Source: an uncultured delta proteobacterium | GTDB lineage: Bacteria > Desulfobacterota > Binatia > Binatales > Binataceae | DNA length: 64,000 nucleotides | NCBI GenBank assembly: GCA_963806485.1 | Contig: CAWDXY010000004.1 | Location: 893,349 to 957,348 of the forward strand | Direction of reading: 5' to 3' | Program-made: the position numbers and the translations under genes | Notes under the pieces: model-generated | What the model saw: only the letters and a program-made list of their open reading frames with translations | The model's database searches: none | What the model was told of the DNA's origin: nothing | In this document: positions 8,413 through 25,796 of the stretch, one piece after another | How the letters are laid out: every line of letters starts with the position of its first letter | Position numbering within the stretch: the first letter of the stretch is position 1

Positions 8413-8712
8413 TCAATCTGAAGCGGACGTATTTACCGACCTGACGCTTGGTATTCGACCCAGCCGCTCTTCGGTGCGTACCCAGGACTCGGGCAGATTG
8501 AGATGCCTGGCAAGCTCACCGGCGTTCACGAGGTTCTGCGCGAGATCGGGTTTAGTGGCTTGTTCGTTTGCCTTCGCCGTGGTCTCGGCTAGCCAGCGTG
8601 AAGCCAGGAGAAGTAGAAGACCCGGAATCTGATCGAGCGAGATACGAGCGGCCCATTCAATGAGCACCGGATCGTTCTGCGGAATTGTGTTGCCCTCCGC
8701 CACCGCTACCAA
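8413..8712 (-). CDS. putative excisionase / AlpA-type helix-turn-helix DNA-binding protein
   Basis: Small ORF immediately upstream of int on same strand; HTH-like segment NAGELARHLNLPESWVRTEERLGRIP. Confidence 0.4.
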   Translation of the reverse strand: MVAVAEGNTIPQNDPVLIEWAARISLDQIPGLLLLLASRWLAETTAKANEQATKPDLAQNLVNAGELARHLNLPESWVRTEERLGRIPSVRSVNTSASD

Positions 8713-8736
8713 CCTTCACCGCCAAGAAAAACTTGT

Positions 8737-10005
8737 TCAGCCCGATTCTTCCTCACCCTTCTCCGCAATCACTTCAGCCTTCTTTCCGGTCAGTCTCTCC
8801 CCTCGCGAGATCGCCACGTCGACAAAGCGCGGCTCCAGCTCGATCGCAAAGCAGCGGCGCCCGAGCTGCTCGGCAGCGATGAGTTGCGATCCGCTGCCGC
8901 TGAAAGGTTCGTAACAGAGATCGTCGGGACGGGTGTGCAACTCCATCGGAATCGTAAAGAGCCGGTTCGGCTTCGAGGTAGGATGCTCGCTGCTCTCCAC
9001 CTCGGCGTTCGTGACCTGCCAGACCGTGCCGGGATTGCCATATTTGCGGTCGACCCCGGGCTTCTGACCTTTGATCCAACCGAAGAGGCAGGGCTCGTGC
9101 GCCCACATATAGACTGAGTAAGTTAAAACGGGTCGGCTTTTGAACCAGACGATCTGCTGATGATTGAAAGCCCCGACTTCGTTCCAGACGCCCTCAAGCA
9201 TCGCCTGCCGGGCCGACGCGTGCCAACAATACCAGGCCGCGTTGGGTGCGATCTCGCGTTCGATCGCAACTTTGTAAAAAGCGAGATAGAACGAGCGGCC
9301 GCCATCGCTGCCGCCGTCCTCGTTGTCGAAAGTTGTTTGGCCAGCTTCGTGGTAGACCTTCGACCAGTCCTTGTCGCGGTTGGCTTTGGCCCGGTTCGGG
9401 CGGGTCGCTGGATGCGAGCCGCCAGCGTAGCCGACCGCATACGGCGGATCAGTCGCGAACAGGACCGCCCGCTCATCGCCCATCAAGCGTGAAACGCATT
9501 CCGGTCGCGTGGAATCGCCACACGTGAGCCGATGCTTGCCCAATTGCCAGGTCTGGCCTAAACGCGCCACAGGGCTTGCCGGTGTCGCGGGAATGGCGTC
9601 CTGTGGGGCGTCCTCGCCCAAGGCGAGGCATCTGAGTTCCTTGGGATCGAACGCGGTCAGCTCAGCGAGCGCGCCCAATTCGCTTATCTCCAGCTTGAAT
9701 AATTCATCGTCCCAGCGGGCTTCTTCGCCTGCGCGGTTGTCGGCGATGCGATACGTGCGGCATTGGGCCTCATTTAAATCGGCAGCGACGTGCACCGGGA
9801 CCTCGAGCAAGCCGAGCTTACGTGCTGCGAGCAGTCGGCGATGACCCACCACGATAACGCCGGCGGCATCGACGACGATGGGCTGGCGCCAGCCAAATTC
9901 CTTGATGCTCGCCGCGACCTTGTCGATCGCTGACTGCGGAATCTTGCGCGGGTTCTTCGCGTACGGAAGCGGCCGGTCGATCGGCCAAAGCTCGACTTCC
10001 ATCAT
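8737..10005 (-). CDS. ParB-like nuclease domain fused to DNA N4/N6-methyltransferase (phage-type orphan methylase)
   Basis: N-terminal ParB motif VVGHRRLLAARKLG; methyltransferase motif IV LFATDPPYAVGY and C-terminal SAM motif EPFSGSGSQLIAAEQLGRRCFAIE. Confidence 0.8.
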   Translation of the reverse strand: MMEVELWPIDRPLPYAKNPRKIPQSAIDKVAASIKEFGWRQPIVVDAAGVIVVGHRRLLAARKLGLLEVPVHVAADLNEAQCRTYRIADNRAGEEARWDDELFKLEISELGALAELTAFDPKELRCLALGEDAPQDAIPATPASPVARLGQTWQLGKHRLTCGDSTRPECVSRLMGDERAVLFATDPPYAVGYAGGSHPATRPNRAKANRDKDWSKVYHEAGQTTFDNEDGGSDGGRSFYLAFYKVAIEREIAPNAAWYCWHASARQAMLEGVWNEVGAFNHQQIVWFKSRPVLTYSVYMWAHEPCLFGWIKGQKPGVDRKYGNPGTVWQVTNAEVESSEHPTSKPNRLFTIPMELHTRPDDLCYEPFSGSGSQLIAAEQLGRRCFAIELEPRFVDVAISRGERLTGKKAEVIAEKGEEESG

Positions 10006-10493
10006 GATGCCGTATCCTCCTCCTCTTCATCGTCGAGCAGGTCCGAAAAGAGACTGCCTTGCGCGGGGTTGAGCGACTTCACTTTGCTGCGAGAGGCCGG
10101 CGAGCAGCCGAATTCCACCTCGATCTGGTGCATCGCTTTCGAGCACATCGACATCGCGCTTAGATACGGATTGATGTACGGATTGCCGACGCCGTTGGCT
10201 TTCACTACCAGGCCGCTCTGCTTGATCGCGCGCGCGGCCTCGGCGCGCGTCGAGTACCAGAAACACCAAGTTCCGAACATGGTCAGGTCGAGCCGGGTCA
10301 AAAGGCCCGCCTCGATAAATCGCCTACCCTCGAGAGACCACGCGTGCTTACCGGTGTCGTCGAGAAAATCGGGCGCTCGCGGCATCCGCTTCAGGAGCGG
10401 ACTTTCAGGCTCGTCTTGATTTAGTGGCCGCCGGCTGCCGCGCATGATCTTCAGCGTTGCCGGCGTCGGTCTGCGCCCCCTCATCTGCCCCAC
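10002..10493 (-). CDS. phage terminase small subunit, P27 family
   Basis: N-terminus MGQMRGRRPTPATLKIMRGSRRPLNQDEP matches the P27 terS signature (G-R-P-xP-xxLK-xxG...RPLN); stop overlaps the methylase start. Confidence 0.75.
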   Translation of the reverse strand: MGQMRGRRPTPATLKIMRGSRRPLNQDEPESPLLKRMPRAPDFLDDTGKHAWSLEGRRFIEAGLLTRLDLTMFGTWCFWYSTRAEAARAIKQSGLVVKANGVGNPYINPYLSAMSMCSKAMHQIEVEFGCSPASRSKVKSLNPAQGSLFSDLLDDEEEEDTAS

Positions 10494-10950
10494 CTCGATC
10501 CCATCACCACTTCAGACCCCCCCACCTCTATGAATTTCGTGCACGCGTGCGTGTGGCTGCCATGCGGTCAACGCTCGGCCGATCGTAGAGATTTGATCCC
10601 CTATCCGGTCCACGCGCGATCGCTCAACCATCACAGCGAATCTAGATCGTTCAGAGCCTTTCCCATCGAAACAAGGCCGATAGGATCCCCACAAAACTGA
10701 AATGCGATCGACTCGGCCGGACGAGTTCAACGTTCGTAGCTTCACGATTGCCGCCCGTCCTCACGACAACTTCCTGCTCATAGCTCTCCGGTCCTCCAAG
10801 GTCCGCTGTGCTTTCATAGTCTCCGCGTCGGGCGATTGACCCTCTCGCGCAACGACCTGCAGCGCACCCTTTCTCGCCCCAGTTCGGTTCTCCCTGGTGA
10901 CTCCCTCTCCGTTTGTGTGTCCATTTCCATTTTGATTTTCAGTATTTCTT

Positions 10951-11526
10951 TCAGGTCTCCAGATCTCCATTCTCAGTCTCTATGCTTCGAAGGGGCTCCG
11001 AAGTCACATCTGACTTAAAGTACTCGGCGACTTGGTAGCGCTCGCCGTACATCTCAAGCAGTCGGTCGAAGAACGGCAAAGGGCGCAACTTCTCCATCTC
11101 CCGCCAAACCCAGGTTATGTTCTTGTCCTTCCGATCGAGCCGCTCCCCGATCTGAAACCGAGCCATGTTCAACACGAGGACAACTTCGCTCTCGTGCTCG
11201 TAATCACAAAATTCAATCGCGGAGAGGTTCGCGATGCCGCTTCGGACTTGTTCGATCGTCAAGCCGGTTTCGTGAGCAACGGTCGGCAGTGGTAAGTAGT
11301 ACAGCCCCAGCGGGTGAGCGCCCGGGCCTGATATCAGGTATAGCGCGAGCACTTGGCACTCCAATCCGAGCCGACGGATCTGCCTGCCGGTAGTTCCGTA
11401 CGAGAAGCCGGGCCTCAACTTGGCAAATTTCCTCATACGATCACCCTTCCCGACGATCGCGCGTCGAGACGAGGCGGAAATTCGCTTTCGACAATGGAGT
11501 CTTGCTCGGGGGGCGACCCCTGTCAT
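10951..11526 (-). CDS. hypothetical protein in integrative element (true start probably internal Met near 11436)
   Basis: ORF in lower-GC island DNA, no recognisable motifs. Confidence 0.35.
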   Translation of the reverse strand: MTGVAPRARLHCRKRISASSRRAIVGKGDRMRKFAKLRPGFSYGTTGRQIRRLGLECQVLALYLISGPGAHPLGLYYLPLPTVAHETGLTIEQVRSGIANLSAIEFCDYEHESEVVLVLNMARFQIGERLDRKDKNITWVWREMEKLRPLPFFDRLLEMYGERYQVAEYFKSDVTSEPLRSIETENGDLET

Positions 11527-11653
11527 TCCGCATTGAAACTACGAGTTCCATGTAGATCAGGTATAAGCAACGATCGTCTTTGGGTCATCGGGTGCAGCAC
11601 AACTTTGCACCCGCCCCAACCGTCCAAGTCTCTGAAAAGACTAGACTAAATGT

Positions 11654-12505
11654 TCAGTCGTGTTTGTAGTTGTTGAGCTCGATTAGATCGGCTTTTGTGA
11701 TCCAGATGGGTCGAAAAGTGACATCGACGTCTTTCAAATCGATACTTGCGGGGACGGTCCACATTTTGGTCTCATCCAAGGTTGGCTCCAATGAGCCGGG
11801 GCTTCGATGATTCTGCCCACGGCGCCTATACCATTCAGCAATCGCCAGCAGTCTGCGCATTGTCTGTCGGCTCAATTCACCTGACCTCGAGTCGCGGCCG
11901 TGGTCGTCTCTCAATACGGTGAATGCGGCATACAAGTGACAGACCGGCTTGAACTTGGCCCACGCGTCCTCAATCGATCGAAGAGACAACGGTACATCGA
12001 CCTTTGGTTCTCCGTTCGGCGCCAACACATGCCTTCGTAGTTTTGCGATCGCTAAGTGTCGACCTTTCTTCAACGTCGCAAGTGCCGGAACCATATCGGC
12101 GAGCCGGATTAGAAGCGCGAGGATCTGGCCCGCTATAAGCCCTTTGCCAAAATTCGTCAGTCCCTCGTCGGCCAAGCTCTCCGCCGTGAGTTGAGAAGGA
12201 AGTGAGACATAGAGAAGTCGGTCTAACTCCGAGAGGGACATTCCGGACTCGCTGAATCGCGACATCTGTAGGTCCCACTTTTCAAGGGCAATCTCATCGT
12301 GAGGCGGCTGCTTTCGGATTGCTTCAACAAGCTGAAGCACGAGGTGGCGACGCTTCTTCGAATCAGACGGGAACATCATCGTTCCGAGAAGTTCTGAGTA
12401 ATCGACGAGTTCCGCGATCCGGCCGTTGTGTATTAATCCAATGCAGGGCATTCTCGGCAGACCAAAGGCATTCGGTGCGTTGGTAGCGATATCAGTACTG
12501 CCCAA
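11654..12505 (-). CDS. hypothetical protein, cargo gene at distal end of integrative element
   Basis: 283-aa ORF in locally AT-richer DNA, no recognisable motifs. Confidence 0.4.
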   Translation of the reverse strand: MGSTDIATNAPNAFGLPRMPCIGLIHNGRIAELVDYSELLGTMMFPSDSKKRRHLVLQLVEAIRKQPPHDEIALEKWDLQMSRFSESGMSLSELDRLLYVSLPSQLTAESLADEGLTNFGKGLIAGQILALLIRLADMVPALATLKKGRHLAIAKLRRHVLAPNGEPKVDVPLSLRSIEDAWAKFKPVCHLYAAFTVLRDDHGRDSRSGELSRQTMRRLLAIAEWYRRRGQNHRSPGSLEPTLDETKMWTVPASIDLKDVDVTFRPIWITKADLIELNNYKHD

Positions 12506-12753
12506 GTTGTCTGCTTACAAGCTGGAGCAGCCAACGGAGATTTTCCTTCGCGCTTGGTCCTCCGACACTTCGTAGACACAACAGCCGAGGAATCCGCACA
12601 CTATGGTCGACGATTCAGAGGCCACCAGTTCGGCTATCTGGTGCAGGGCAAAGACTCGGACGAGTGTCGGCAATCACGGCGAGGTTGCGCGCGATAAGGC
12701 GCGCTGGGGGGTGCGCAGTGTTTGCGGCGCTCGCTCGGCGCTGTCCTATTCGC

Positions 12754-15486
12754 TCAAGGCCCTGTCCCCGTGAGGCTGATGCTATACGGGCTGCTGGGAT
12801 CGCTGCCTATCGTCACCGCCATGGTGGCGCTTTCGGGCGTGCCGCCGGCCGTCGGTGTGAAGGTCACCGCTATCGTGCACGACGAGTTAGGCAATACCGT
12901 ACCTCCGCACGTGCCGCCGGTCGCCGCGAAGTCGGTCGCGTTCGGTCCGCTGGTGCTGCTCTCACCCACCGATAGCGCGAATCCCGACTTGTTGGTGACA
13001 GTCACGTCCCTGGTCTTCGGCGACGTCCTAGCGGTCAGGGTGCCATACGCCAGCGTGAGCGGCGCGACCGTCGCTGGAATCGTCGCCCCGGTGCTGAGCG
13101 CCACGGTGTACGGACTCAGCGGATCGGGACTGTCTGCGACCGTCAGCGTCGCTGATTCTGAGCCCAGGGCACCCGGCATGAAGGTCACGTAGATCGAGCA
13201 TTCGGTTTTGGCGGCCAGCGTTCCAGTGCAGGTACCGCCGGTGATCGAGAAGTCAGACGCGTTGGTCCCGCTGAAGCTCTCGCTCAGCGTTACCGGCTGG
13301 GTTTGATGATTGACCACGCCGAAGGCCTCGACCTCCTTAAGGCCGAACTGGACCTCGCCGAACGCCAGGCTGCTCTTCGTGGTTGTCAGATCCGCGATGC
13401 CGGTGCCGCTGAGCGCCACGTGTTGCGGGCTGGTAGCGGCGTTGTCGCTAATCGCAAGCGATGCACCATGCGCACCGACCGCGTTGGGCGTGAATGCGAT
13501 TCCCAGCCCGCAATTTGTCCTGGGCGCGACCGTTACGGGAATCGCACCGCATGTCCCTCCTCCCGTAAGGGAATATTCAGAGTCGGACGGTGTCCCGCTC
13601 GAGATGACCAGCGAATGGGTCCTGCCGGTGTTGTAGACCGTCACATTCTTCGCGACCGTCTGACCGACTGCAACGTTGCCGAACGCGCGCGATGCAGTCA
13701 CGGACATCGAGGTAGTCGGCGTCGCGGTCGGGGTTGCAGTTACCGTAGCTGAGACAGTCGCCGTCGCAGTCTGAGTGACCGTGACCGTTGCGGTCGGAGT
13801 TGCTGTTGCAGTCGCAGTCGCCGTAGACGTATCGGTCGCGGTCGCCGTGTTCGTCGCGGTCGCGGTTGCCGTATCGGTCGCCGTGGACGTGTCGGTCGCG
13901 GTGGCCGTGGCAGTCGAGGTTGCTGTTGCGGTCGCAGTTGCAGTTGCGGTGGCCGTTGAAGTTGCCGTCGCCGTAGCTGTCGCAGTCGGTGTTGCCGTTG
14001 CGGTAGTGGTCAAAGTCGGGGTTGCTGTCGCCGTCGCCAGAACGCCGCCATATTCGAACGCGCCGATGTCGCAGGCGTTGTATCCGGGCGCCGGGCGCGC
14101 TGCGCCGCGTTGGTCGGTGGCCGGACAATCGGCAGTCGGGATCGCCGCTATCGCATAGCTGCCCAACTCAAGGGCGATCGTCTGGGTCGGCCCGCCGTTA
14201 TACGCCGGCCCGCCGACGAGCCCCACATCGCTGTAGCTGACGTTATCGCCGATTGTATCGCCGTTGGCGCCCGTGCTGTTTCCAAAGCCGCACCCGGCAT
14301 CGTCGGAAATGTTGTACCCCCCGTTGCTGATGGTGCCACCATTTTCCGTGCTGCAGTTTCCCTCGCCGTTGCCGGCGACCATCGAGTTGGCGACCGTTAG
14401 CGTCCCGAGGCTGCTGGTGCTCGTGATTGCCCCGCTGGCGAAGAGCCCATTGCTACTGTTGCCGACGATGGTGCAGTTGGTAACGGTCACTGCGCCGGAA
14501 CCGTTTTCGAGGATGGCACCGCCGACGCCTCCTTGGGTCGCGCCGTTGCCTACCAAGGTGCTGTTGGTGACTGTGACCGTCCCGCCGCTGTCAAAGATTC
14601 CGCCGCCCCCGTCGCTCTCCTCCGCGCCGTTGCCGTAGAGAGTGCTGCTGGTGACGATCAGAGTGCCGCCGTTAGCGATGGCGCCACCGACGCCTCCGGA
14701 AGTGCTGTTGCCGGAGAGAGTGCTGTTGGTAATGGTCAGCATGCCGCCGTTGCCAATGGCTCCGCCGCCTCCTTGATCCGCCCTGTTGTTGGTGAGAGTG
14801 CTGTTGGTGACGGTCAGCGTGCCGCCGTTAACAATGGCTCCGCCGCCACCGGCGCCGCTGCCGTTGGATGTGCCGTTGCCGGAGAGAGTGCTGTTGGTGA
14901 CGGTCAGCGTTCCGAGGTTATAAATGGCTCCGCCGTTGGACGAGCCCAAGGCGTTGTTGTCGGAGATAGTGCTGTTGGTAAGGGTCAGCGTGCCTTGGTT
15001 AAAGATGCCGCCGCCCTCGTCGGCGACGCTGCAAAGTCCGCCCCCACTGCCGTGGGCGATAGTCAGGTTATTGAGGTTGAGCGTTGCGCTCGAGTTCTCC
15101 ACCACCAGCACCTGAAAAGACTCTCCGCAGGGCAATTGAAACTCCGCCCCGTTCCCACTAATTGTTACGGTCTGGCCGCTCCCATCAATCGTCAGATTGT
15201 TCTGGATCGCGGGAAGTGTGCTGCCCAGCGTAATCGTGCCGTTGACGCTGAACATGATGGTATCGGTGCCGGTGCCCGCGGCGCATCCGTTCACGGCGGC
15301 CTTAGTGTTGGCTGCGGTGATCGCGTCGCGCAGGGCGCAAACTCCCGCCGAGCCTGGGTCAGCCGTCGTGTTGACGATTATAGGTCCGCTCTGCGCTTGC
15401 GAGACCGCCAAAGCCGCGAGCAAACCAGTAGCCAGCAGCGCCAGAGCAACGAACGCAGCGCGCAGTGGTTTTGTTTGTGAATTCAC
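12754..15486 (-). CDS. secreted beta-helix repeat protein with Thr/Ala/Pro linker and C-terminal tandem choice-of-anchor-D domains (paralog of 853..2949 C-terminus)
   Basis: Signal peptide MNSQTKPLRAAFVALALLATGLLAALAVSQA; beta-helix rungs GTLTVTNSTLSGN repeated; C-terminal ~330 aa ~75 percent identical to C-terminus of the 853 protein. Confidence 0.8.
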   Translation of the reverse strand: MNSQTKPLRAAFVALALLATGLLAALAVSQAQSGPIIVNTTADPGSAGVCALRDAITAANTKAAVNGCAAGTGTDTIMFSVNGTITLGSTLPAIQNNLTIDGSGQTVTISGNGAEFQLPCGESFQVLVVENSSATLNLNNLTIAHGSGGGLCSVADEGGGIFNQGTLTLTNSTISDNNALGSSNGGAIYNLGTLTVTNSTLSGNGTSNGSGAGGGGAIVNGGTLTVTNSTLTNNRADQGGGGAIGNGGMLTITNSTLSGNSTSGGVGGAIANGGTLIVTSSTLYGNGAEESDGGGGIFDSGGTVTVTNSTLVGNGATQGGVGGAILENGSGAVTVTNCTIVGNSSNGLFASGAITSTSSLGTLTVANSMVAGNGEGNCSTENGGTISNGGYNISDDAGCGFGNSTGANGDTIGDNVSYSDVGLVGGPAYNGGPTQTIALELGSYAIAAIPTADCPATDQRGAARPAPGYNACDIGAFEYGGVLATATATPTLTTTATATPTATATATATSTATATATATATATSTATATATDTSTATDTATATATNTATATDTSTATATATATPTATVTVTQTATATVSATVTATPTATPTTSMSVTASRAFGNVAVGQTVAKNVTVYNTGRTHSLVISSGTPSDSEYSLTGGGTCGAIPVTVAPRTNCGLGIAFTPNAVGAHGASLAISDNAATSPQHVALSGTGIADLTTTKSSLAFGEVQFGLKEVEAFGVVNHQTQPVTLSESFSGTNASDFSITGGTCTGTLAAKTECSIYVTFMPGALGSESATLTVADSPDPLSPYTVALSTGATIPATVAPLTLAYGTLTARTSPKTRDVTVTNKSGFALSVGESSTSGPNATDFAATGGTCGGTVLPNSSCTIAVTFTPTAGGTPESATMAVTIGSDPSSPYSISLTGTGP
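13746..14064 (-). repeat. low-complexity Thr/Ala codon repeat tract (linker)
   Basis: gtcgcggtcgcc-type repeats; antisense AVAV ORF 13775..14158 is an artefact. Confidence 0.8.
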
Positions 15487-16608: not shown

Positions 16609-17943
16609 TCACTCTATATGGTATCGCTTCCGTTTACGCCAGAGCGTGGGGATGCTTATGCCAAGGGTGGCGGCCGCGTCCTCAAGAGTTGGAGCGACCG
16701 CCAACACCCGCTTGATGTGCTCTTCCTCAAGTTCCTCGAGGCTTGAATCCGCTGATACCTGGATCGGCCGTTGTGTGCTCGGCGCAAAGAGCACGTCAGA
16801 GAGATCTTCCTTGCGTATGACCGTGCCACGACTTAGAACGACCGCGCGCTCCACCACGTTGCGGAGCTCTCTGATGTTCCCTGGCCACGAATATGGGATC
16901 AGGGCCTTCCTGGCCTCTTCTGAGAAATGGAGATCAGAACGGCGATTTCGCGCAGCCGCCTCGGACAATAGCTTCTCGGCTAACGGCAAGATGTCTTCGG
17001 GGTGCTCGCGTAACGCGGGCACCCGGAGGCTAATCACGTTGAGCCGGTAATACAGGTCAGCTCGGAAGCGACCGGCGGCGATTTCCTGTTGCAGATCGCG
17101 ATTAGTGGCAGCGATGACGCGTGTGTCAACTGAAATCGTCTCTTGCCCTCCGATCCTCTCGAAACATCCGTCCTGTAAGAAACGAAGGAATTTTGTCTGA
17201 AGAGATAGCGACAGTTCCGCGAGCTCGTCAAGAAAAAGCGTGCCCTTATTCGCCGCTTCGAGCCGACCGGGCTTGTCCTTGATCGCGCCCGTGAAAGACC
17301 CTTTCATGTGGCCGAACAGTTCGCTTTCCAGCAGATGTTCCGAAAGCGTGGTGCAATTCACAGTGACAAAAGGGTGCTGGTGTCGAGGGCTCCATCCATG
17401 TATCTGACGAGCGAGTACATTCTTGCCAGTACCGCTCTCGCCCGTGAGCAGAATACTCGCTTCGCTGGCAGCCGCTGTGAACGTGACTTCGATCAGCTCA
17501 CGAAATCGAGAGCTGGCGGAAGCCAGCAACGGAACGCCATCGATTGAGTCGCGCAGCGCACGATTTTGAGCGCGCAACTCCTTGACCTCGAGAGCGCGCT
17601 CAACTGCGTGCTGCACCTGATCGAGGGAAAAAGGTTTGGTGAAATAGTCGTGTGCGCCCGCCTTCATCGCCGCGACAGCGTTATCGATGGTGCCGTAGGC
17701 GGTCATGAGAATCACAACCGTGTCGGGAAACTTCTGTTTGATGGTCTTGAGCAGCTCGAGGCCATTCATCTCGGCCATTCGCCAATCGCTCAATACCAAA
17801 TCGAAGTCACCGCACTTCGACATTAGATCCAGCGCCTGACGACCGCTGTCCGCCGTGGCCACCTTGTAGTTGCATGACTCAAGGAATCTGGCGACCCCCT
17901 GCCTGATGTTCTTTTCGTCGTCGACGATGAGCAGCTTAGCCAT
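16609..17943 (-). CDS. sigma-54-dependent response regulator (NtrC family: receiver + AAA+ sigma-54 activator + Fis-type HTH)
   Basis: Receiver motifs VDDE, LVLSDWRM, ILMTAYG, FTKPF; Walker A GESGTGKN; GSFTGA (GAFTGA variant); C-terminal HTH. Confidence 0.9.
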   Translation of the reverse strand: MAKLLIVDDEKNIRQGVARFLESCNYKVATADSGRQALDLMSKCGDFDLVLSDWRMAEMNGLELLKTIKQKFPDTVVILMTAYGTIDNAVAAMKAGAHDYFTKPFSLDQVQHAVERALEVKELRAQNRALRDSIDGVPLLASASSRFRELIEVTFTAAASEASILLTGESGTGKNVLARQIHGWSPRHQHPFVTVNCTTLSEHLLESELFGHMKGSFTGAIKDKPGRLEAANKGTLFLDELAELSLSLQTKFLRFLQDGCFERIGGQETISVDTRVIAATNRDLQQEIAAGRFRADLYYRLNVISLRVPALREHPEDILPLAEKLLSEAAARNRRSDLHFSEEARKALIPYSWPGNIRELRNVVERAVVLSRGTVIRKEDLSDVLFAPSTQRPIQVSADSSLEELEEEHIKRVLAVAPTLEDAAATLGISIPTLWRKRKRYHIE

Positions 17944-19088
17944 CAGACGTCCCTTGAAGTGGGCAGCGTTAACGTAACCTTGCAGCCGCTTTCCAGTGTT
18001 TCCGCGAACAGTCTCCCTCCATGCGCCTCGATGATTTCCTTCGCGATGGCGAGGCTGATTCCGGTCCCAAGGCTTTGCAAATCGCTATTGGCCTCGGTCG
18101 GACTATCAAAGACCAGTTCCAGTACCTGCGGTGGAATTTCAGACCCGCTGTCCCAAACAGATATTCTGATCTGGTCGTCTTCCTCCTCTGCGGTCAAAGC
18201 GATGTTTCCCATTTCAGGCGTGTAGCGCACCGCATTGCCGACGAGAGTGGCTATCACCCACAACAGCTTCAGCGGGTCACCTGAGACTCTGAGGTTCCTT
18301 TCGGCGTGCACATCAAATTTGATTTTCCGACGTTCGATCCGATTTCTAAACTTTCTGGAAACGACCTTGAAGATAGTCCAAAGGTCAAATCCTACCTGAC
18401 GAAACGCTACTGACCTGGGTTGCTCACGTATGAAGTTCAGAAAATCAGCAGATAGGCGATTTAGCCGATCGACATCTTCCACAATTTCGCGAATCAACTC
18501 GGTCTGCCGCTCTCCGGTGCGTTGCAAGAGTCCCACCGCCAGGGACACGGAGGTCAAAGGCGTGTTGAGCTCCTGAGCTACTGACACTACCGTGTCGTTT
18601 CGGAACCTGCTTTTATCGAAAAGCTTTGAAAGATGGCGAAGTACGACGAAGGTTCCGAAGGTACTGCGGTCGCTCCTTCGCAGACGAGCCGTCTTCAAAA
18701 CATAGCTGCGCTCGCAACCCTCTACGTTCAGACCAAGTTCAATCTGCCACTCGTCTCGGGGACAACCCCTTACCCCTGTGAGGGCGGCTCGGATGCGCGC
18801 ACAACTCATGCTGTGACGGTCAAGGTCGTCGTTAAACGGTTGACCGACGATCTGATCGCGTTCGACAGCCAGGATTTCGGCCGCCGGCTGATTCAGGTGA
18901 ATTACAGTTTCAGTCTCGTCGAGGACAAACGCGGCTTCATCGAGACAATCGACTATCGCCGCGACACGATCATCACTATCGCTAAAGGCCCTTTCGGTTC
19001 CCACAGCGAACACCCCGTCGGCGCTTTGCGCCGCCTGACACTTTCTGACTCTAAGCCGGCGGCGCTCCGAAGTGCTTGCGCAGCTCAA
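17943..19088 (-). CDS. PAS-domain sensor histidine kinase homolog whose H-box His is replaced by Gln; true start probably downstream of 19051
   Basis: H-box reads VSVAQELNTPLTSV (CAG at 18573-18575) where HisKA consensus is S-H-E-L-R-T-P-L; intact N box GNAVRYT, G1 DSGSEIP, G2 GTGISLAIAKEIIEAHGG; stop overlaps RR start. Confidence 0.8.
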   Translation of the reverse strand: MSCASTSERRRLRVRKCQAAQSADGVFAVGTERAFSDSDDRVAAIVDCLDEAAFVLDETETVIHLNQPAAEILAVERDQIVGQPFNDDLDRHSMSCARIRAALTGVRGCPRDEWQIELGLNVEGCERSYVLKTARLRRSDRSTFGTFVVLRHLSKLFDKSRFRNDTVVSVAQELNTPLTSVSLAVGLLQRTGERQTELIREIVEDVDRLNRLSADFLNFIREQPRSVAFRQVGFDLWTIFKVVSRKFRNRIERRKIKFDVHAERNLRVSGDPLKLLWVIATLVGNAVRYTPEMGNIALTAEEEDDQIRISVWDSGSEIPPQVLELVFDSPTEANSDLQSLGTGISLAIAKEIIEAHGGRLFAETLESGCKVTLTLPTSRDV

Positions 19089-20070
19089 GGTTGACCTGGA
19101 GCACGTTCACCATGTTTTCGCCCACTAGTCCGTAGAGAGGGGCGGATGTGTCAGCCTGCAATATCTGTTCGATCTCCGTCCGCACCTGACCTTCGTCGCG
19201 CTTGGTGTCCTTCGCCCATGCAGAAGACACTCGATCAAGCTGATACTCTGCGTTTTGTAGCGTGATGTTGGGATCCAGGCCTGACGCCGAGGTTGTTACC
19301 ATATCTCCGGGCACGTCCTGGAGATTCGCGTCAGGATTTTCCTGCCGCCACATATCAAAGAAGTTCGACTGAATGTCAGAGCCGCTGGCAACTGGGTGAA
19401 TCACTGTCTGAGTCTTTCCACCCGGGAGCTGATTTGTAACAGCTGAGGGGAACTTACCGGGAGTGTCCTTCGAGAAGTTTTCAAAAAAGACGACCGCTAG
19501 ATCCGAAGCCTGGGGCTGGGGCGTTCCCGGATTCTGCTTGATCCAATCCTTTACCACCGCGTCATGGTCCTTGGCCCAATCGGTCACATATTGCGCGTGT
19601 GTCGGATCCGCACTCACCCACGCCTGCGCGAGTTCATTATGATTGTCGGCCCACTGTGCGACTATATGAGGCTGCCCCCCGAACTTATCCTGCTGAAACC
19701 ATGCTTCGATATCCGGCGCAACCAATTGTCCTTTCTTCGGCTCCTCGCCGTACTTGACGATCGGACCAAGCATATTTGCGACCCGATTTCGAAGCGCATA
19801 GTTCGATGCTGCCAGGGCGGACGACGCTGATGCGGAACCATCATAAGACGCGGCAGAAGGTCGGGGCTGAAAGTATTCGTCCTTGGTGAACGGTTGTGCG
19901 ATCAACAGCGAGCCCACCGGTTTGCCGTCTGGCCCGTCTACCATGCTGCCGTTGGCGGTAAACGGGAAAAACGTTTGCCCGATTGCCAATACTGCTAGAG
20001 GGTAAATCAGACAGCAGATCACAACCGAGACGCCCAGGAGAAATAAGCTCTTTGAAATGTAGCTACGCAT
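19051..20070 (-). CDS. kdpC: potassium-transporting ATPase subunit C, long form with internal insertion
   Basis: N-terminal IYPLAVLAIGQTFFPFTANGSMVDGPDGKPVGSLLIAQPFT...FQPRPSAA and C-terminal VPGDMVTTSASGLDPNITLQNAEYQLDRV...VNVLQVNLEL match KdpC ends; 339 aa vs typical ~190. Confidence 0.85.
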   Translation of the reverse strand: MRSYISKSLFLLGVSVVICCLIYPLAVLAIGQTFFPFTANGSMVDGPDGKPVGSLLIAQPFTKDEYFQPRPSAASYDGSASASSALAASNYALRNRVANMLGPIVKYGEEPKKGQLVAPDIEAWFQQDKFGGQPHIVAQWADNHNELAQAWVSADPTHAQYVTDWAKDHDAVVKDWIKQNPGTPQPQASDLAVVFFENFSKDTPGKFPSAVTNQLPGGKTQTVIHPVASGSDIQSNFFDMWRQENPDANLQDVPGDMVTTSASGLDPNITLQNAEYQLDRVSSAWAKDTKRDEGQVRTEIEQILQADTSAPLYGLVGENMVNVLQVNLELRKHFGAPPA

Positions 20071-20090: not shown

Positions 20091-22247
20091 TTACGCGATC
20101 AAGTGCATCGAGCTCAGCACGACATCGATCAGTTTGATGCCGATAAAGGGTAGAATGACGCCACCTAAGCCCCAGATTACGAGATTTCTGCGCAGCAGAG
20201 CGTCAGCGCCAAGAGGCCTGTATTTGACGCCTTTCAGTGCTATGGGAATCAGGGCAGGAATAATGACAGCATTGAAGATGACCGCCGACAGGATCGCAGA
20301 CGTAGGCGAATGCAAGTGCATGACGTCCATAGCCTTGAGCCACGGCAGAGTGCCGGCGAAGAGGGCCGGCACGATCGCGAAATATTTTGCTACGTCGTTC
20401 GCCACTGAAAAGGTCGTCAGGGCGCCGCGCGTCATCAGCAACTGCTTGCCTATCTCGACGACTTCAATCAGCTTGGTCGGGTCCGAATCGAGGTCGACCA
20501 TGTTGCCCGCTTCCTTGGCCGCCTGAGTTCCGGAATTCATCGCCACGCCGACGTCTGCCTGGGCGAGTGCCGGGGCATCATTGGTGCCATCGCCCATCAT
20601 CGCGACCAGTTTGCCATCGGCCTGTTCTTTGCGAATGTACGCGAGCTTGGATTCCGGTGTGGCCTGAGCCACGAAGTCGTCTACCCCCGCACGCTTTGCG
20701 ATGGTCGCCGCGGTTAGAGGATTGTCGCCAGTGATCATCACCGTTCTGAGACCCATGGTGCGCAGACGCTCGAAACGTTCACGCATCCCAGTCTTCAGAA
20801 TGTCTTCGAGCACCACCACACCAACGATGTTGGAATTCTCGGCTACCGCCAGCGGTGTCGCGCCGCTGGAAGCGATCTCGTTAACGATTTGATCCAGCCC
20901 GTTGGGAATTGTGCCACCGTTCCGCCGCGCGAACGCCACGACTGCGTCTGCAGCGCCCTTGCGGATATTGCGGCCGTCCGCCAGGTCAACTCCGCTCATC
21001 CTGGTCTGTGCACTGAAATCAATAAACTTCGCGCCTGCTGGCGGGTTCAGTTCGCCGAGAGTGACGCCATCAGCCACCGCTTGCGTAACGATGCTTTTAC
21101 CTTCGGGAGTCTGATCAGCCGTCGAGGCAAGCGCGGCGAGAAGAGCTACCTTCGCTTTGGAATAGGCGCCCACCGGCCGGAAGTCGGTCGCGCGGCGATT
21201 GCCGACCGTGATCGTTCCGGTCTTGTCGAGCATCACGGTATCGATGTCGCCGGCCGTCTCTACTGCCTTGCCGCTCTTGGCGAGAATGTTCGCTTGCAGA
21301 GCGCGGTCCATTCCCGCGATCCCAATCGCGGCAAGCAATGCTCCGATCGTTGTCGGGATCAAACAGACCAAGAGCGCGACCAGGGTTGGTACATCAGTTC
21401 CGAGACTCTTAACGGGGGCTGGAAGGCCCAGGTATCCCATCATGTATTGCTCAGCGTTCCACGCGAGCGGCCACAGGGGAACAACGACGATAAAGAACGC
21501 GACTGTAAGTCCCGAGAGCACGAGCGTCAGCGCAATTTCGTTAGGTGTCTTCTGGCGAACGGCACCTTCGACCAGAGCGATCATGCGGTCGAGAAAGGCC
21601 TGTCCAGGCAGCGCGGTGACTTTCACTACGATTCGATCCGAGATAACTCGCGTCCCTCCGGTAACTCCGGACCGATCACCGCCGGCCTCGCGAATGACCG
21701 GAGCAGATTCGCCGGTGATAGCTGCTTCATCAACTGAGGCGATTCCTTCGACTACGTCTCCGTCACTAGGAATGACCTGGCCGGCTGTGACCACTACGCG
21801 GTCGCCTGGTTTCAAATCGGTCGATCGGACTTCTTCGAGACTGTTGCGAGTCGTTAGCCGGTACGCGGGTGTCTCGCTGCGGGTCTTGCGCAAGGAGTCG
21901 GCCTGGGCTTTGCCACGCGCCTCTGCGAGTGCAGTAGCAAAGTTGGCAAAGAGTACGGTTAGCCAAAGCCAGAAGTCGAGCCCGATGAAATAGCTGATTG
22001 GAACCTGGCTCGCAGAGGCGCCCATTGCCGCTTGTATGATAAACAGCAGCGTAAGAACCGCGCCGATCTCGACCACAAACATGACCGGATTGGCCCACTG
22101 GATGTCCGGGCGGAGCATCACGAAGGATTGCTTCAACGCTTGGCGCACCAGCTCAGGCTCGAACAACGCGCGGCTTCTTATTCGCCGCGGAGGCGGCAAC
22201 GGTGTCGGCGCTTCACTCCTCTGTATTGATTGAACTGCTGCTCCCAT
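20091..22247 (-). CDS. kdpB: potassium-transporting P-type ATPase subunit B
   Basis: P-type ATPase motifs [23 protein letters not shown]; KdpB-specific N-terminal region. Confidence 0.95.
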
Positions 22248-22318: not shown

Positions 22319-24136
22319 CTATCCGCCGAATGGAATAGGACCTAAGTGTTCTGCGAGAGGACCGAGCGCAGCCACAGGAAGGAACAACAGCGCGCCGACG
22401 ATGACGATCGTTCCAAAGAGCAGGCAGCCGAACGTAAAAGTGTCGTCACGAAGGGTTCCCAGCCCGAACGGAGTACTTTTCTTCAATCCAAGGAACGCTG
22501 CCATCGCGATCGGAGCGACGATCGGCAGATAGCGACCGAACAGGATCACCAGACCGCCTCCGATGTCCCACGGGACCGCCTCGGGTGCCGGACTTGTGTT
22601 GTTATTCAGTCCATAGCTCACGCCCAAGCCATCGAAGGCTGAGCCGTTGTTCGCCGATGATGACGAGAACTGATAAACGATTTGCGAAAGACCGTGGGCG
22701 CCCGGATTGCTCTCCGCCTTGATGCCCCAATTCGTTGCCGCGTAGAGTCCCGATGGTCCCAGAATCAGGAAGGGATGGACCAGCAGGGCGATCATCGCGA
22801 GCTTCACCTCGCGAGCGCCGATCTTCTTGCCCAGGTACTCCGGCGTTCGTCCAACCATCTGTCCGGCCAAAAAGACGCCGATGATGAGGAACAGCAGCAA
22901 GTTGATCATGCCGACGCCTTTGCCGCCATAAATGCAGTTGAGCCACATGCCCCAGAATGGCGAGAGCGCTGCGATAGGATTCAGGCTGTCATGCTCGCAG
23001 TTCACCGCACCGCAAGTCACATCGACCGTAGCAGCAGCAAAGGTAGCACCAGCCGAGGTCCCGAAACGCAGCTCCTTGCCCTCGAGATTGCCAAGGTGCT
23101 GATCGACCGGTAGTCCGGCCACGGCGGGAAGAGTAATGACCTGCTTTCCACCCGGCGCACCGGCGTTCGCGATCGTAAATGTCCGGCTCACGGGATGGGC
23201 AGTCAGACCCGGGTTGGGTTGCATGGTGTCGAAGTAGATCGCCCAGACAACTGTGCCGACGAATAACGTCAGCATGACCCCAAAAATCACAATCGAGTGA
23301 CGCAGCCTCCCCAGCATGCGTCCGTACATGAGCACGAGCGCCATCGGGAACAGCATCATGCAGAAGGTCTCGAAGAAATTTGTGCCTGCGCCCGGATTCT
23401 CGAAAGGATGAGCCGAATTCATGCCGAAAAATCCGCCGCCGTTGGTTCCCATCATTTTCATCGGGACGAAAGCAGCTAGTGGCCCCATTACGATGTTCTG
23501 CTGTTTGGGCTGATTGTTGTTGTCCAGCCCCATCGCAGCGGGTTCAAGCGTCGTGACCGTTTGGACGTTCTGATAGGTCATCGGCATCCCCTGTACGAGG
23601 AAGACCATCGAGATCACGAACGCCGCGGGTAGAAAGAAATAAACCACCACTCGCCACATATCGAGGAAGTAGTTGCCGAGATGAGAATCGCCGCGCAGCG
23701 CGCGGATTATGGCAGTAAGAGCGCATAAGCCGACCGCGGCAGAAAGAAAGAAGTTCGCTATACAAAAGAAGATCTGGCTGAAAATCGAGAAGGCTACGTC
23801 TCCCGAATAGTGCTGCATGTTCGTGTTCGTGATGAACGAGATCACACTATGGAAGATTGTGGTCGGCGCCAGCATTCCGAGTCCGCGCGGGTTAAGCGGC
23901 ATCCACGGCTGCAGCGAAAGCACCATATAGCCGTAAACGAACAGAGCTACGTTGAAAACTAAGAGAGCGAGCGTGTACTGTGTCCAACTCATCGGGCCAG
24001 AATCCAGGCGCTTCTCAAACCACTGCAAAACGCCCGGGGCGCGGTACTTGCCGTCCATGATCTTTGCCATATAGCTGCTGAGCGGAATGGCTATGGCGAT
24101 AGTGAAGACGATTATAGAAATGGGCAGAAGCCACAT
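22319..24136 (-). CDS. kdpA: potassium-transporting ATPase subunit A
   Basis: 605-aa polytopic membrane protein with KdpA selectivity-filter-like segments (MGTNGGGFFGMNSAHPFENP). Confidence 0.95.
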   Translation of the reverse strand: MWLLPISIIVFTIAIAIPLSSYMAKIMDGKYRAPGVLQWFEKRLDSGPMSWTQYTLALLVFNVALFVYGYMVLSLQPWMPLNPRGLGMLAPTTIFHSVISFITNTNMQHYSGDVAFSIFSQIFFCIANFFLSAAVGLCALTAIIRALRGDSHLGNYFLDMWRVVVYFFLPAAFVISMVFLVQGMPMTYQNVQTVTTLEPAAMGLDNNNQPKQQNIVMGPLAAFVPMKMMGTNGGGFFGMNSAHPFENPGAGTNFFETFCMMLFPMALVLMYGRMLGRLRHSIVIFGVMLTLFVGTVVWAIYFDTMQPNPGLTAHPVSRTFTIANAGAPGGKQVITLPAVAGLPVDQHLGNLEGKELRFGTSAGATFAAATVDVTCGAVNCEHDSLNPIAALSPFWGMWLNCIYGGKGVGMINLLLFLIIGVFLAGQMVGRTPEYLGKKIGAREVKLAMIALLVHPFLILGPSGLYAATNWGIKAESNPGAHGLSQIVYQFSSSSANNGSAFDGLGVSYGLNNNTSPAPEAVPWDIGGGLVILFGRYLPIVAPIAMAAFLGLKKSTPFGLGTLRDDTFTFGCLLFGTIVIVGALLFLPVAALGPLAEHLGPIPFGG

Positions 24137-24173: not shown

Positions 24174-24254
24174 CTAGAACCACTCGGGCCGGATCATCGC
24201 GGCCAACAGGTAAATAAATACCAACGCGGCCACTATCGCTGTCATGATTATCAT
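24174..24254 (-). CDS. kdpF: potassium-transporting ATPase subunit F (26 aa)
   Basis: Minus-strand ORF MIIMTAIVAALVFIYLLAAMIRPEWF directly upstream of kdpA; single-TM peptide resembling KdpF; not in ORF track (too short); coordinates +/- 2 nt. Confidence 0.75.
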   Translation of the reverse strand: MIIMTAIVAALVFIYLLAAMIRPEWF

Positions 24255-24263
24255 CGCTGCCTC

Positions 24264-24359
24264 CTAGATCTTCTCGCACGCGACCAAAAACGCGAAACAG
24301 AGGCCGAGGCTGATGAGCCCCAAGAGGAACGTCCCAGGCAACCAGATGGCCACATCCAT
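24264..24359 (-). CDS. conserved 31-aa hydrophobic mini-protein upstream of kdpF (copy 1)
   Basis: ORF MDVAIWLPGTFLLGLISLGLCFAFLVACEKI; stop 9 nt before kdpF start with GGAGG in between; paralogous ORF before second kdp operon keeps frame and hydrophobicity. Confidence 0.55.
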   Translation of the reverse strand: MDVAIWLPGTFLLGLISLGLCFAFLVACEKI

Positions 24360-24533
24360 AGATTCATCCTACCTTTCCGCAAGCGATGAGCTGGCGGCAT
24401 GCTTCTCGAGATTCAGTTCAGCTGCCCTCAAAGCCTTTCGGATAGCCGAACGTAGACAACTCCGATTAAGAAAATTGCTACCGTTATGCCGACGAAAAGC
24501 ATGTCGAGCATGGTTCTCAAGCCTCAGGAGCAA

Positions 24534-24552
24534 GGCAGCACAAACCATGCCT
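24534..24552 (-). promoter_or_regulatory. candidate sigma-54 (-24/-12) promoter for kdp operon 1
   Basis: Minus strand reads AGGCATGgtttGTGCTG vs consensus TGGCACGnnnnTTGCW with conserved GG and GC at correct spacing, ~170 nt upstream of the mini-ORF. Confidence 0.25.
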
Positions 24553-24782
24553 CGGTATTTTCTATACGAATGCTATTTTTTTCGTCAGGGACGACTGGCG
24601 AGGGTTTCAAAATGATAAGTGACAGTGCGAATCGAAGGCCGGCAGGCTCTAGAGCCAAGTCGATATGTGGTAGTTCGATCAGGGTCAGGGCTGCAAGGGA
24701 TGTAGCTAACGGATACAGAAGTTGCGGGGCCGTTATCTATCGACCCCGCAACCCTTGACCTTGAAGCCAAGAAGGCCGCTAG

Positions 24783-25796
24783 TTATTGAGGCTGTCCGAA
24801 ACGGCTTGCTAATTGCAAATTGACTTGAAGAACATTGACAAATTTTTCCCCAAACAAGCCTCCTAGAGGAGCCGATGCGTTCGCCTCGAGTATTTGCTCG
24901 ATTTGATCGTGCACCTGTTTCGGGTCCAGTTTTTTATCGGCAGCCCATTTCTGAGAGACGCGATCCAGCTGATATTCCGCATTATCTAGAGTGATATGCG
25001 GGTCGAGGCCTGAGGCCGACGAGGTAACCATGTCACCGGGGACATCCTGGAGCGCTGCGTCTGGATGGTCTTGTCTCCACATGTCGAAGAAGATCGATTG
25101 CACATCCGATCCACTTGCGACCGGCTCGATGTCGGTCTGCGATTTGCCATTAGGCAGCTGCTTGGTCACTGGCGATGGGAACTTGCCGGGATTGTCCTTG
25201 GAGAAATTCTCGAAAAACAGTACAGCCAGGTCCGAGGGCTGTGGCTGTGGTGTGCCCGGATTCTGCTTGATCCACTCGTCCACCGCGCTCTTATGACTTT
25301 TGGACCAGTCAGTTACGTACTGAGCGTGAGTAAGATCGGCGCTTATCCATCCTTGCGCCAGCTCGTTGTGATCGTCAGCCCATTGTGCAACGAGATGCGG
25401 CTGACCCTGGAATTGATCTTTCTGAAACCACGCCTCGACATCCGGCGCAACCAACTGGCCAGCTTCGGGGCCGACCTTATATTTCACGATAGGTCCCAAT
25501 TGCCGGGCCACTCTGTCTCGTAGCGCGTAGTTAGATGCAGCGAGCGCCGATGAAGTACTGGCTGAGGCATCGTACGATGCCGCTGAGGGCCGTGGCCAGA
25601 AGTACTCGTCCTTTGTGAACGGCTGTGCGATCAACAGTGAGCCGACCGACTTGCCATCCGGTCCTGTGACCATGCTGCTATTGGCGGTAAAGGGAAAGAA
25701 GGTCTGGCCGATCGCCCACACTGCAAGCGGATAGGCTATCGCGCAAACTACGACTGTCGCAGTTAGGAGTATCAGGCTTTTGACTATGTTTCGCAT
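24783..25796 (-). CDS. kdpC: potassium-transporting ATPase subunit C, second copy (long form)
   Basis: ~75 percent identical to 19051..20070 product incl. the internal insertion. Confidence 0.85.
   Translation of the reverse strand: MRNIVKSLILLTATVVVCAIAYPLAVWAIGQTFFPFTANSSMVTGPDGKSVGSLLIAQPFTKDEYFWPRPSAASYDASASTSSALAASNYALRDRVARQLGPIVKYKVGPEAGQLVAPDVEAWFQKDQFQGQPHLVAQWADDHNELAQGWISADLTHAQYVTDWSKSHKSAVDEWIKQNPGTPQPQPSDLAVLFFENFSKDNPGKFPSPVTKQLPNGKSQTDIEPVASGSDVQSIFFDMWRQDHPDAALQDVPGDMVTSSASGLDPHITLDNAEYQLDRVSQKWAADKKLDPKQVHDQIEQILEANASAPLGGLFGEKFVNVLQVNLQLASRFGQPQ

Follow-up and report, generated by a model that had tools for sequence, protein, structure and literature searches.

A sigma-54 regulator with a histidine-less kinase-like partner is likely to control kdp potassium-uptake genes in an uncultured Binatia bacterium

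In a 64,000-nucleotide stretch from an uncultured delta proteobacterium of the Binatia (GenBank assembly GCA_963806485.1, contig CAWDXY010000004.1, positions 893,349 to 957,348; hereafter the window), we analysed a locus that encodes the Kdp potassium-uptake system together with a two-component-type regulatory pair. Sequence-cluster mates at 90% identity or more carry the annotation Candidatus Binatus sp. Two kdp operons lie in tandem on the minus strand between 30.1 and 16.6 kb, with two regulatory genes after them; Pfam searches confirmed KdpA, KdpB (E1-E2 ATPase and HAD domain), KdpC and KdpF in both operons. Operon 1 consists of a small open reading frame (ORF; 30009-30104), kdpF1 (29913-29993), kdpA1 (28054-29871), kdpB1 (25827-27992) and kdpC1 (24783-25796), the last a long form of 337 amino acids (aa). 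Operon 2 begins with two small ORFs for membrane peptides ahead of kdpF2, MLDMLFVGITVAIFLIGVVYVRLSERL (24428-24511) and MDVAIWLPGTFLLGLISLGLCFAFLVACEKI (24264-24359), neither of which has a match in a Pfam scan, and continues with kdpF2 (24174-24254), kdpA2 (22319-24136), kdpB2 (20091-22247) and kdpC2 (19051-20070; long form, 339 aa). The two operons are 76-78% identical to each other. For comparison we used eight related loci (L001, L002, L004, L005, L006, L007, L089 and L092); the structural genes of operon 2 are 79-93% identical to their orthologues in L004, and homologous small peptides are encoded in L001, L002, L004 and L005-L007. Between kdpC1 and the operon 2 promoter lies a predicted hairpin terminator (24712-24752, minus strand; -28.2 kcal/mol, z = -4.6), which is kept in L001 and L004.

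Downstream of kdpC2 follow a gene for a kinase-like protein with PAS, HisKA and HATPase_c domains (17943-19013, minus strand; 355 aa from a GTG at 19013), referred to below as the partner, and a gene for an NtrC-family response regulator of 444 aa, a sigma-54 enhancer-binding protein (16609-17943, minus strand). A first-pass annotation of this DNA, made from the sequence alone, had described a co-oriented kdpFABC-histidine kinase-response regulator order, which the Pfam domains bear out. Its further statement that the kinase gene overlaps the kdpC stop proved to be an artefact of a longest-ORF TTG start at 19088; we place the real start at GTG 19013, because all of the ~40 close homologues of 351-355 aa begin at the equivalent position, and a gap of 37 nucleotides (nt) separates kdpC2 from this start. 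The regulator ATG overlaps the stop of the partner gene, and no terminator was predicted between the operon 2 genes, the partner gene and the regulator gene.

The regulator matches the Pfam families Response_reg (4e-31), Sigma54_activat (2.5e-66) and HTH_8 (7e-08), as well as AAA_lid_14. The phosphorylation residues of its receiver (REC) domain are intact (the DD pair, D53 within LSDWRM, the Thr, and the Lys of TKP), its AAA+ domain carries a GSFTGA loop, and all of these are invariant among orthologues; the receiver residues remain so whatever residue the partner has at its histidine position. The Fis-type helix-turn-helix (HTH) ends in '...TLWRKRKRY', with a recognition helix that is kept from the window to L006 and L007. 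Identity to orthologues is 91-95%, with a ratio of nonsynonymous to synonymous substitution rates (dN/dS) of 0.05-0.06. No NCBIfam equivalog model reached its cut-off with the regulator, with the partner, or with the PII-like proteins, the universal stress protein (Usp)-like ORF and a 212-aa ORF of the window. The first-pass annotation held that this pair stands in place of KdpD/KdpE. Domain searches found no kdpD, kdpE or rpoN among the ORFs of the 64-kb window, and the KdpD-N domain (PF02702), present in L006 and L007, is absent across it; this part of the claim stands only for the window, which is a portion of a 1.57-Mb contig. The presence of rpoN in the genome is implied by the two sigma-54 activators encoded in the window.

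The arrangement of kdpABC, kinase gene and regulator gene is kept in eight of eight relatives, the comparison of neighbourhoods that the first-pass annotation had proposed. In L001, L002, L004, L005, L089 and L092 a kinase-like gene (39-70% identity) is flanked by kdpC on one side and by the gene for a sigma-54 response regulator of 444 aa on the other. The order in L006 and L007 is kdpFABC, a KdpD-N+Usp protein, kinase and sigma-54 regulator, the kinases of these two loci being ~36% identical to the partner, roughly 600 aa long and equipped with a HAMP domain.

The leader of operon 2 contains a candidate -24/-12 promoter, AGGCATGGTTTGTGCT (24552-24537, minus strand; GG at 24551-24550, GC at 24539-24538), termed P-kdp2, in which the GG and GC are 10 base pairs (bp) apart in a TGGCAC-N5-TTGCW-like context. 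We scored both strands of the window (128 kb) with a sigma-54 matrix modelled on the published consensus, whose absolute scores are approximate, and the site reached 11.4 bits, placing it within the nine best. It lies 27 nt before the 27-aa small ORF; the next small ORF follows at ~177 nt and kdpA2 at ~415 nt. The best matrix site in each relative's kdp leader is of the same kind: GGGCACGCTTTATGCT (L001), GGGCACACTTTATGCT (L004), AGGCATGGGACTTGCT (L005), CGGCATAGCTCTTGCG (L002), CGGCACGCGAGGTGCT (L007) and CGGCACGCGGATTGCC (L006). The first-pass annotation had noticed a -24/-12 candidate at ~24534-24552 and suggested scoring with a position weight matrix; the approximate matrix does find a match there, and the score, the orthologous position in six loci and the pairing with a palindrome described below indicate that the element is real. 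Its assignment needs correction: it had been placed ahead of the first operon, and it belongs to operon 2, the promoter-distal one, to which the two-component genes are joined. In an alignment of three leaders (window, L001 and L004), the -24/-12 falls in the same columns, with a conserved small ORF (ATGCTCGACAT...) beginning ~25 nt further on, and the activator site, an A-tract and the -24/-12 are among only a few conserved non-coding blocks. The A-tract, CGAAAAAAAT (24575-24584, minus strand), sits between enhancer and promoter and is probably a DNA-bending element; CGAAAAAA, the same as this A-tract, also stands between an upstream activating sequence and a promoter at 33290-33300. A sigma-70 consensus scan of 18.5 kb returned one weak site, outside the leaders, against 9.1 expected, and thus no sigma-70-like promoter in the kdp leaders. 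A search of the leaders for a KdpE-like direct repeat of the type TTTATA-N5-TTTATA gave nothing relevant, so that the KdpE-type operators which the first-pass annotation had named as evidence against its own proposal were not found at the kdp promoters. An Rfam scan of the whole window revealed no riboswitch for cyclic di-adenosine monophosphate (c-di-AMP), or any other, in the kdp leaders.

Upstream of P-kdp2 lies a palindromic candidate activator site, TATCATTTTGAAA (24605-24617, minus strand), with the consensus TTTCA-N3-TGAAA and its centre 60 bp upstream of the -24 GG. The window contains six copies of the palindrome core TCATTTTGAAA, where 0.74 would be expected. Defining a pairing as a palindrome with at most one mismatch located 50-95 bp upstream of a matrix match of at least 9 bits, we counted seven pairings in the window, distributed over five promoters, versus 0.02 in 100 shuffles. 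Measured from palindrome centre to GG, the spacing falls into two classes, 60-61 and 83-85 bp, across the window, L001, L002, L004, L005 and L007.

The palindrome connects this locus to a characterized system. In Desulfovibrio vulgaris, the sigma-54 regulator DVU3334 targets its own kdpFABC operon, as determined by hybridising affinity-purified DNA to arrays (DAP-chip), and the sensor is split between DVU3336, which has the K+-sensor and Usp domains, and the PAS kinase DVU3335 (Rajeev et al. 2011); DVU3334 was also listed as the sigma-54 regulator of DVU3339.1-3337, 'potassium uptake' (Kazakov et al. 2015). The motif sequences given for DVU3334 and its orthologues are CGTTACATTTTGTAACGG (D. 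vulgaris Hildenborough kdpF), GATTACAAAATGAAATAT (D. vulgaris Miyazaki kdpF) and CGTTTCATTTTGAAATGT (Syntrophobacter fumaroxidans) (Rajeev et al. 2011, Table S9), and the S. fumaroxidans sequence is base-for-base identical to GTTTCATTTTGAAAT of the window. By analogy with this published family motif, we infer that TTTCA-N3-TGAAA is bound by the window regulator. Our comparison with DVU3334 used gene order, domains and the listed motif sequences. The DVU3334-DVU3339.1 cluster resembles the present locus in that genes for a kinase and an NtrC-type regulator come after kdpFABC with all genes co-oriented, in the GAFTGA-type loop of the regulator, and in the palindrome, which is the same (TTACA/TTTCA-TTT-TGTAA/TGAAA); its three-gene regulatory module is shared by L006 and L007. 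It differs in that the window operon has no KdpD-N/Usp gene, a stand-alone Usp-like ORF lying 14 kb away; in that the window partner is short and soluble, with neither a HAMP or membrane part nor a phospho-His; and in that the window has two tandem kdp operons and places PII-like genes, a gene for a cyclic nucleotide monophosphate (cNMP)-binding protein and a REC-less activator gene under the same enhancer.

Comparison with KdpD/KdpE of E. coli likewise shows a two-component-type pair directly downstream of kdpC that controls kdpFABC, and the kinase-like C-terminal half of KdpD is homologous to the partner (the KdpD chain 6lgq was among its PDB matches). KdpE is an OmpR-type winged-helix regulator that acts at a sigma-70 promoter. 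KdpD has KdpD-N and Usp domains, four membrane helices, a GAF domain and a working kinase/phosphatase, whereas the window partner lacks these sensor parts. From the conserved gene order, the -24/-12 element, the fixed palindrome spacing and the match to the DVU3334 motif, all of which support the first-pass proposal that the adjacent NtrC-type regulator places kdp under sigma-54 control, we consider it likely that kdp is switched on here by a sigma-54 enhancer-binding regulator and not by KdpD/KdpE, in a DVU3334-type circuit whose kinase-like partner lacks the phospho-acceptor histidine.

The partner is a soluble PAS-HisKA-HATPase_c protein whose H-box reads VAQELNTPLTS, with Q172 (numbered from the 19088 start) in place of the phospho-acceptor histidine; in phmmer alignments this glutamine falls on the phospho-His of ThkA (3a0r), VicK (4i5s) and 8u4x. 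We surveyed the H-boxes of its 120 best homologues. Among the long membrane-type proteins an H-box was detectable in 64, of which 62 have His; the soluble type of ~350 aa has Gln in 38 members, Asn in four and Glu in three, with His in only five genuine full-length cases. The acidic residue that follows the histidine position (H+1) varies within the family (E, Q, R, K or H), and the threonine at H+4 (T176) is invariant across it. The H+1 acidic residue is needed for kinase activity and the H+4 threonine only for phosphatase activity (Willett & Kirby 2012), so that retention of the threonine alongside a variable H+1 position is the pattern expected of kinase-dead, phosphatase-competent HisKA domains. 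The HATPase_c domain matches Pfam at 4e-21 and has an N-box; its G1 box is DSGSEI in the window versus DSGPGI in most relatives. No other gene of the locus evolves as fast as that of the partner (58-62% identity to its orthologues, compared with 89-96% for KdpA, KdpB and the regulator). Its dN/dS of 0.26-0.34, versus 0.05-0.06 for the regulator, indicates relaxed yet clear purifying selection. The protein is full-length (351-355 aa) in more than 40 sequence clusters, and residues in its PAS and ATP-binding domains are invariant.

Because glutamine replaces the phospho-His, the partner would be unable to autophosphorylate, and the pair would not form a canonical two-component system. We tentatively propose, at a chance that we put slightly below even, that the partner is kinase-dead and phosphatase-competent or receiver-binding, with phosphate for the regulator arriving from elsewhere. 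A comparable division of labour is known from Pseudomonas aeruginosa, where KinB dephosphorylates the response regulator AlgB and BphP phosphorylates it (PMC6932827), and it matches our proposal of a phosphatase partner with a separate donor. JGI/KEGG annotation assigns partners and regulators of the window type to KinB/AlgB, and AlgB is of the NtrC family, but KinB keeps its histidine, is membrane-bound and, with AlgB, addresses biofilm, virulence and alginate genes and not kdp. DivL and RetS, both among the PDB sequence matches of the partner, also have HisKA/HATPase_c domains and signal without autophosphorylation of their own; DivL carries a tyrosine at the histidine position. They are distant relatives with other partners and outputs, which makes the likeness an analogy and not family membership. 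We note separately that the soluble partner of L002 retains its histidine, and that in this locus two palindromes and a sigma-54-type site (CGGCATGGCACTTGCG), together spanning 12450-12562, precede a 207-aa ORF and an extra, His-containing HAMP-PAS kinase of 599 aa (12593-15055). This kinase is a candidate example of an unlinked phosphodonor.

The same architecture of palindrome and -24/-12 marks five promoters in the window. P-PII1, AGGCATAGTTCCTGCT (30884-30869, minus strand; 11.4 bits), lies 40 nt before a gene for a 104-aa PII-like protein (30515-30829, minus strand) that is located immediately upstream of kdp operon 1, and is paired at 83 bp with the activator site TTTCACGCTGAAA (30960-30972, minus strand); P-PII1 probably also feeds operon 1. 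P-PII2, CGGCACACGCTATGCA (31204-31219, plus strand), has activator centres at 31121 and 31144 and precedes a second, divergent PII-like gene (31277-31633, plus strand). P-cNMP, CGGCACGATTAATGCG (33183-33168, minus strand), precedes a cNMP-binding-domain gene (32556-33026), and P-usp, CGGCACAGTTAATGCT (33326-33341, plus strand), precedes the Usp-like ORF (33354-33824, plus strand) and a REC-less paralogue of the regulator (33900-34904, plus strand); these two divergent promoters (33168-33341) share activator sites centred at 33242 and 33266. The Usp-like ORF, recognised by Pfam, is homologous in tblastn searches to the Usp part of the KdpD_N-Usp genes of L006 and L007. The REC-less activator has a GAFSGA loop and the same HTH recognition helix as the kdp regulator, with 56% identity to the latter and 61% to the kdp regulator of L007, and the Usp-like/activator pair is missing from the orthologous region of L090. 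Together the two proteins may form a further activator/anti-activator system that works through the same sites. The protein behind P-cNMP has a cNMP-binding domain only, and the window also encodes two cyclase-domain proteins of the adenylate/guanylate type (3833-6496 and 51457-53700, both plus strand), of the AAA_16-TPR and CHASE2 classes; their combination with the enhancer/sigma-54 promoter hints at a cyclic-nucleotide input.

Ahead of the small ORF of operon 1 there is a perfect palindrome, TTTCATTTTGAAA (30319-30331, minus strand). An alignment of the two kdp leaders of the window shows conservation in the small ORFs only, and nothing ahead of operon 1 obviously corresponds to the operon 2 promoter. 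We examined CAGCAC/TCGAACTTGCT (30210-30194; position 2443 in L005) as its promoter, but AG replaces GG at -24 and the candidate could not be validated. The arrangement nevertheless recurs: TTTCATTTTGAAA is followed, 112-115 bp on, by CAGCA(C/T)CGAACTTGCT with AG for GG both in the window (30319-30331 and 30194-30210) and in L005 (2327-2337 and 2443-2458), and this sequence may be a non-canonical or decayed operon 1 promoter. Alternatively, operon 1 may be reached by transcripts that read through from P-PII1, or may have a promoter of a kind that we did not recognise.

The two PII-like proteins score 18.2 and 17.8 bits against the Pfam P-II model, below its 25-bit cut-off, and the 104-aa protein has 297 homologues that lack a Pfam assignment. 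A weak AlphaFold2 model of the PII-like protein (mean predicted local distance difference test score, pLDDT, 54.5), in which the fold is only indicative, has a beta-alpha-beta, loop, beta-alpha-beta topology; with this model, the top 50 PDB hits of Foldseek are all PII-type proteins (PII, GlnZ, GlnK, SbtB and CPII), at template modelling (TM) scores of 0.5-0.6. Canonical PII proteins bind nucleotide through a B-loop with the motif TGxxGDGKIF, and this motif is not recognisable in the PII-like proteins. Homologues stand beside kdp operons in all three contexts examined (L090, L091 and L092), one of which also contains true P-II genes, a phosphotransferase system (PTS)-HPr gene and a cNMP-binding gene. 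In the window each PII-like copy lies behind its own enhancer/sigma-54 promoter, and copies in L002 (2038-2358) and L005 (431-712 and 1657-1968) are likewise preceded by palindrome/sigma-54 promoters. The placement beside a transporter operon and the beta-alpha-beta, T-loop, beta-alpha-beta pattern recall GlnK-AmtB, SbtB-SbtA and PII-NrtBCD, from whose PII proteins those of the window differ in having no recognisable B-loop and in scoring below the Pfam threshold. That they might gate, or signal to, Kdp is an attractive idea.

We therefore picture the circuit as follows. The regulator would bind TTTCA-N3-TGAAA centred 60 and/or 84 bp upstream of the -24/-12 promoters, the A-tract between enhancer and promoter would aid looping of the DNA, and the AAA+ domain with its GSFTGA loop would remodel the sigma-54 holoenzyme. 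P-kdp2 would drive the two small ORFs, kdpFABC of operon 2, the kinase-like gene and the regulator gene, and with the regulator gene under P-kdp2 the circuit would be autoregulated. P-PII1 would drive the PII-like gene and probably operon 1, and the three further promoters would serve the second PII-like gene, the cNMP-binding protein, and the Usp-like protein with the REC-less paralogue. The partner, which keeps the HisKA threonine and most of the ATP-binding boxes, would act as a PAS-signal-regulated phosphatase or anti-activator of the regulator, whose intact receiver would be phosphorylated by another donor. The signal (K+), the phosphatase role and the separate phosphodonor are all proposals at this point. 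More speculatively, and with considerable doubt, we suggest that the Kdp sensor of Binatia may have been rebuilt from a hard-wired, His-less, PAS-gated phosphatase or anti-activator, an unlinked phosphodonor, and a co-regulated post-translational or signalling layer of PII-like proteins on Kdp, comparable to GlnK-AmtB or SbtB-SbtA. The PII-like proteins might read adenine or cyclic nucleotides, because cNMP-binding and KdpD-type Usp proteins are in the same regulon.

Several observations weigh against the sigma-54 circuit as drawn. P-kdp2 has GTGC for TTGC at -12, and an A in place of T just before the -24 GG; the perfect palindrome ahead of operon 1 has no convincing -24/-12 at canonical spacing, the sole candidate being AGCACcgaacTTGC (30209-30196); the damaged G1 box (DSGSEI) of the window partner would fit decay; the phosphatase role assigned to the partner is read only from residue conservation; and the REC-less paralogue, with the same recognition helix, could be the occupant of the palindrome sites. 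A loose search of the window for GGCAC-N5-TTGC gave 266 matches, not an enrichment over the 233 expected, and the sigma-54 signal emerges only when matrix scoring is combined with orthologous position and activator-site pairing. These near-chance numbers, and the restriction of the kdpDE search to the 64-kb window, would suit the alternative that the adjacent pair is unrelated to kdp, canonical KdpD/KdpE being encoded elsewhere and acting at a sigma-70 promoter while the -24/-12 is fortuitous. We regard this as very improbable, given that the synteny of kdpABC with both regulatory genes holds in eight loci, that the -24/-12 and palindrome stand at fixed spacing directly ahead of kdp, that the palindrome matches the motif of the kdp activator DVU3334 and its orthologues, and that the kdp leaders have neither a sigma-70-like promoter nor a KdpE-like direct repeat. 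A different rearrangement of the same parts would have the TTTCA-N3-TGAAA sites held mainly by the REC-less paralogue under the Usp-like protein, with the operon-linked regulator secondary or competing. The nearly identical recognition helices of the two proteins, the 61% identity of the paralogue to the L007 kdp regulator, and its position behind its own activator-site/sigma-54 promoter beside a homologue of the KdpD Usp domain all fit this arrangement; it seems to us rather unlikely, since the paralogue/Usp pair is missing in L090 while the REC-containing regulator is always linked to kdp, and the two proteins need not exclude each other.

Two further alternatives concern the partner. It might still be the phosphodonor, either through a non-canonical acceptor or in a heterodimer, where its ATP-binding domain would phosphorylate the histidine of another kinase and that kinase would pass the phosphate to the regulator. 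The N-box and G1 box are kept in most Gln-type members, the receiver phosphorylation residues are invariant, and L002 has the additional long, His-containing kinase behind an activator-site/sigma-54 promoter, all of which would accommodate such a role. We judge it unlikely, since there is no conserved His or Asp replacement within the dimerization and histidine phosphotransfer (DHp) helix, the catalytic H+1 Glu has given way to Q, R, K or H in many members, the G1 box of the window protein is damaged, and there is no second kinase in the window, L001 or L004. At the other extreme, the partner would be a functionless relic nearing loss, with the regulator run by acetyl phosphate, the REC-less paralogue, or the Usp-like or PII-like proteins. 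Its rapid evolution (58-62% identity versus 79-96% for its neighbours), a dN/dS about five times that of the regulator, and the loss of the histidine, sometimes of the Glu and, in the window, of part of the G1 box point in this direction. That it has remained a full-length ORF in more than 40 clusters, with a dN/dS clearly below 1, invariant PAS and ATP-binding-domain residues and a retained start/stop overlap with the regulator gene, leads us to consider decay without function distinctly unlikely.

Some other features of the window and its relatives deserve mention. The small ORFs at 24264-24359, 24428-24511 and 30009-30104 encode conserved single-helix peptides of 27-31 aa that end in ...C-E-K/R-I/L; they adjoin kdpF on its upstream side, some through an ATGA overlap, and are also found in the leaders of L001, L002 and L004-L007. 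Roles as additional small subunits of Kdp or as leader peptides are conceivable. KdpC has 337-339 aa compared with the usual ~190, owing to ~150 residues inserted at the point where the two halves of the Pfam KdpC model meet, and this long form co-occurs with a KdpA of 605 aa and a KdpB of ~720 aa; L001 has one long-type and one normal-type kdp operon in tandem. A protein of unknown function with a C-x-R-C...G-P-C-P pattern is encoded beside kdp in the window (31907-32545, plus strand), L005 (778-1326), L006 (3622-3873) and L007 (3006-3665), and in L006 its gene separates the kdp genes from the predicted sigma-54 promoter. The minus strand at 7047-12505, a few kb downstream from the regulator, encodes a phage-type integrase, a fusion of ParB-N with a DNA methylase and a number of hypothetical proteins, and is likely an integrated mobile element. 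Large secreted proteins are encoded at 853-2949, 12754-15486, 36066-37154, 42304-45762, 45892-48585 and 55209-57707, with long Thr/Ala/Pro linkers (TATATATPT...) and ASH/Cep192-type Ig domains, NHL, Kelch or NosD-like beta-helix repeats.

Textbook accounts of kdp regulation feature KdpD/KdpE and a sigma-70 promoter. Control by sigma-54 has nevertheless been described before (Rajeev et al. 2011; Kazakov et al. 2015), the D. vulgaris circuit having been reported with orthologues in just two other species, and our literature search returned no sigma-54-dependent kdp system besides that of D. vulgaris and nothing linking Binatota to kdp regulation. What is new here is an operon without a KdpD-N/Usp sensor, a His-less partner under selection and PII-like genes in the regulon, together with duplicated operons with a 150-residue KdpC insertion and an extended regulon. 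The finding overturns no concept; it refines an under-appreciated variant. Through this locus and its relatives, the known range of the D. vulgaris-type circuit and its DNA motif now reaches the Binatia, which are uncultured and abundant in soil. The same loci offer a clean natural case of a two-component kinase that has no histidine yet is under selection, which helps to separate the kinase and phosphatase roles of HisKA domains, and the recurrence of PII-like genes beside kdp points to an unstudied layer of control over K+ uptake.

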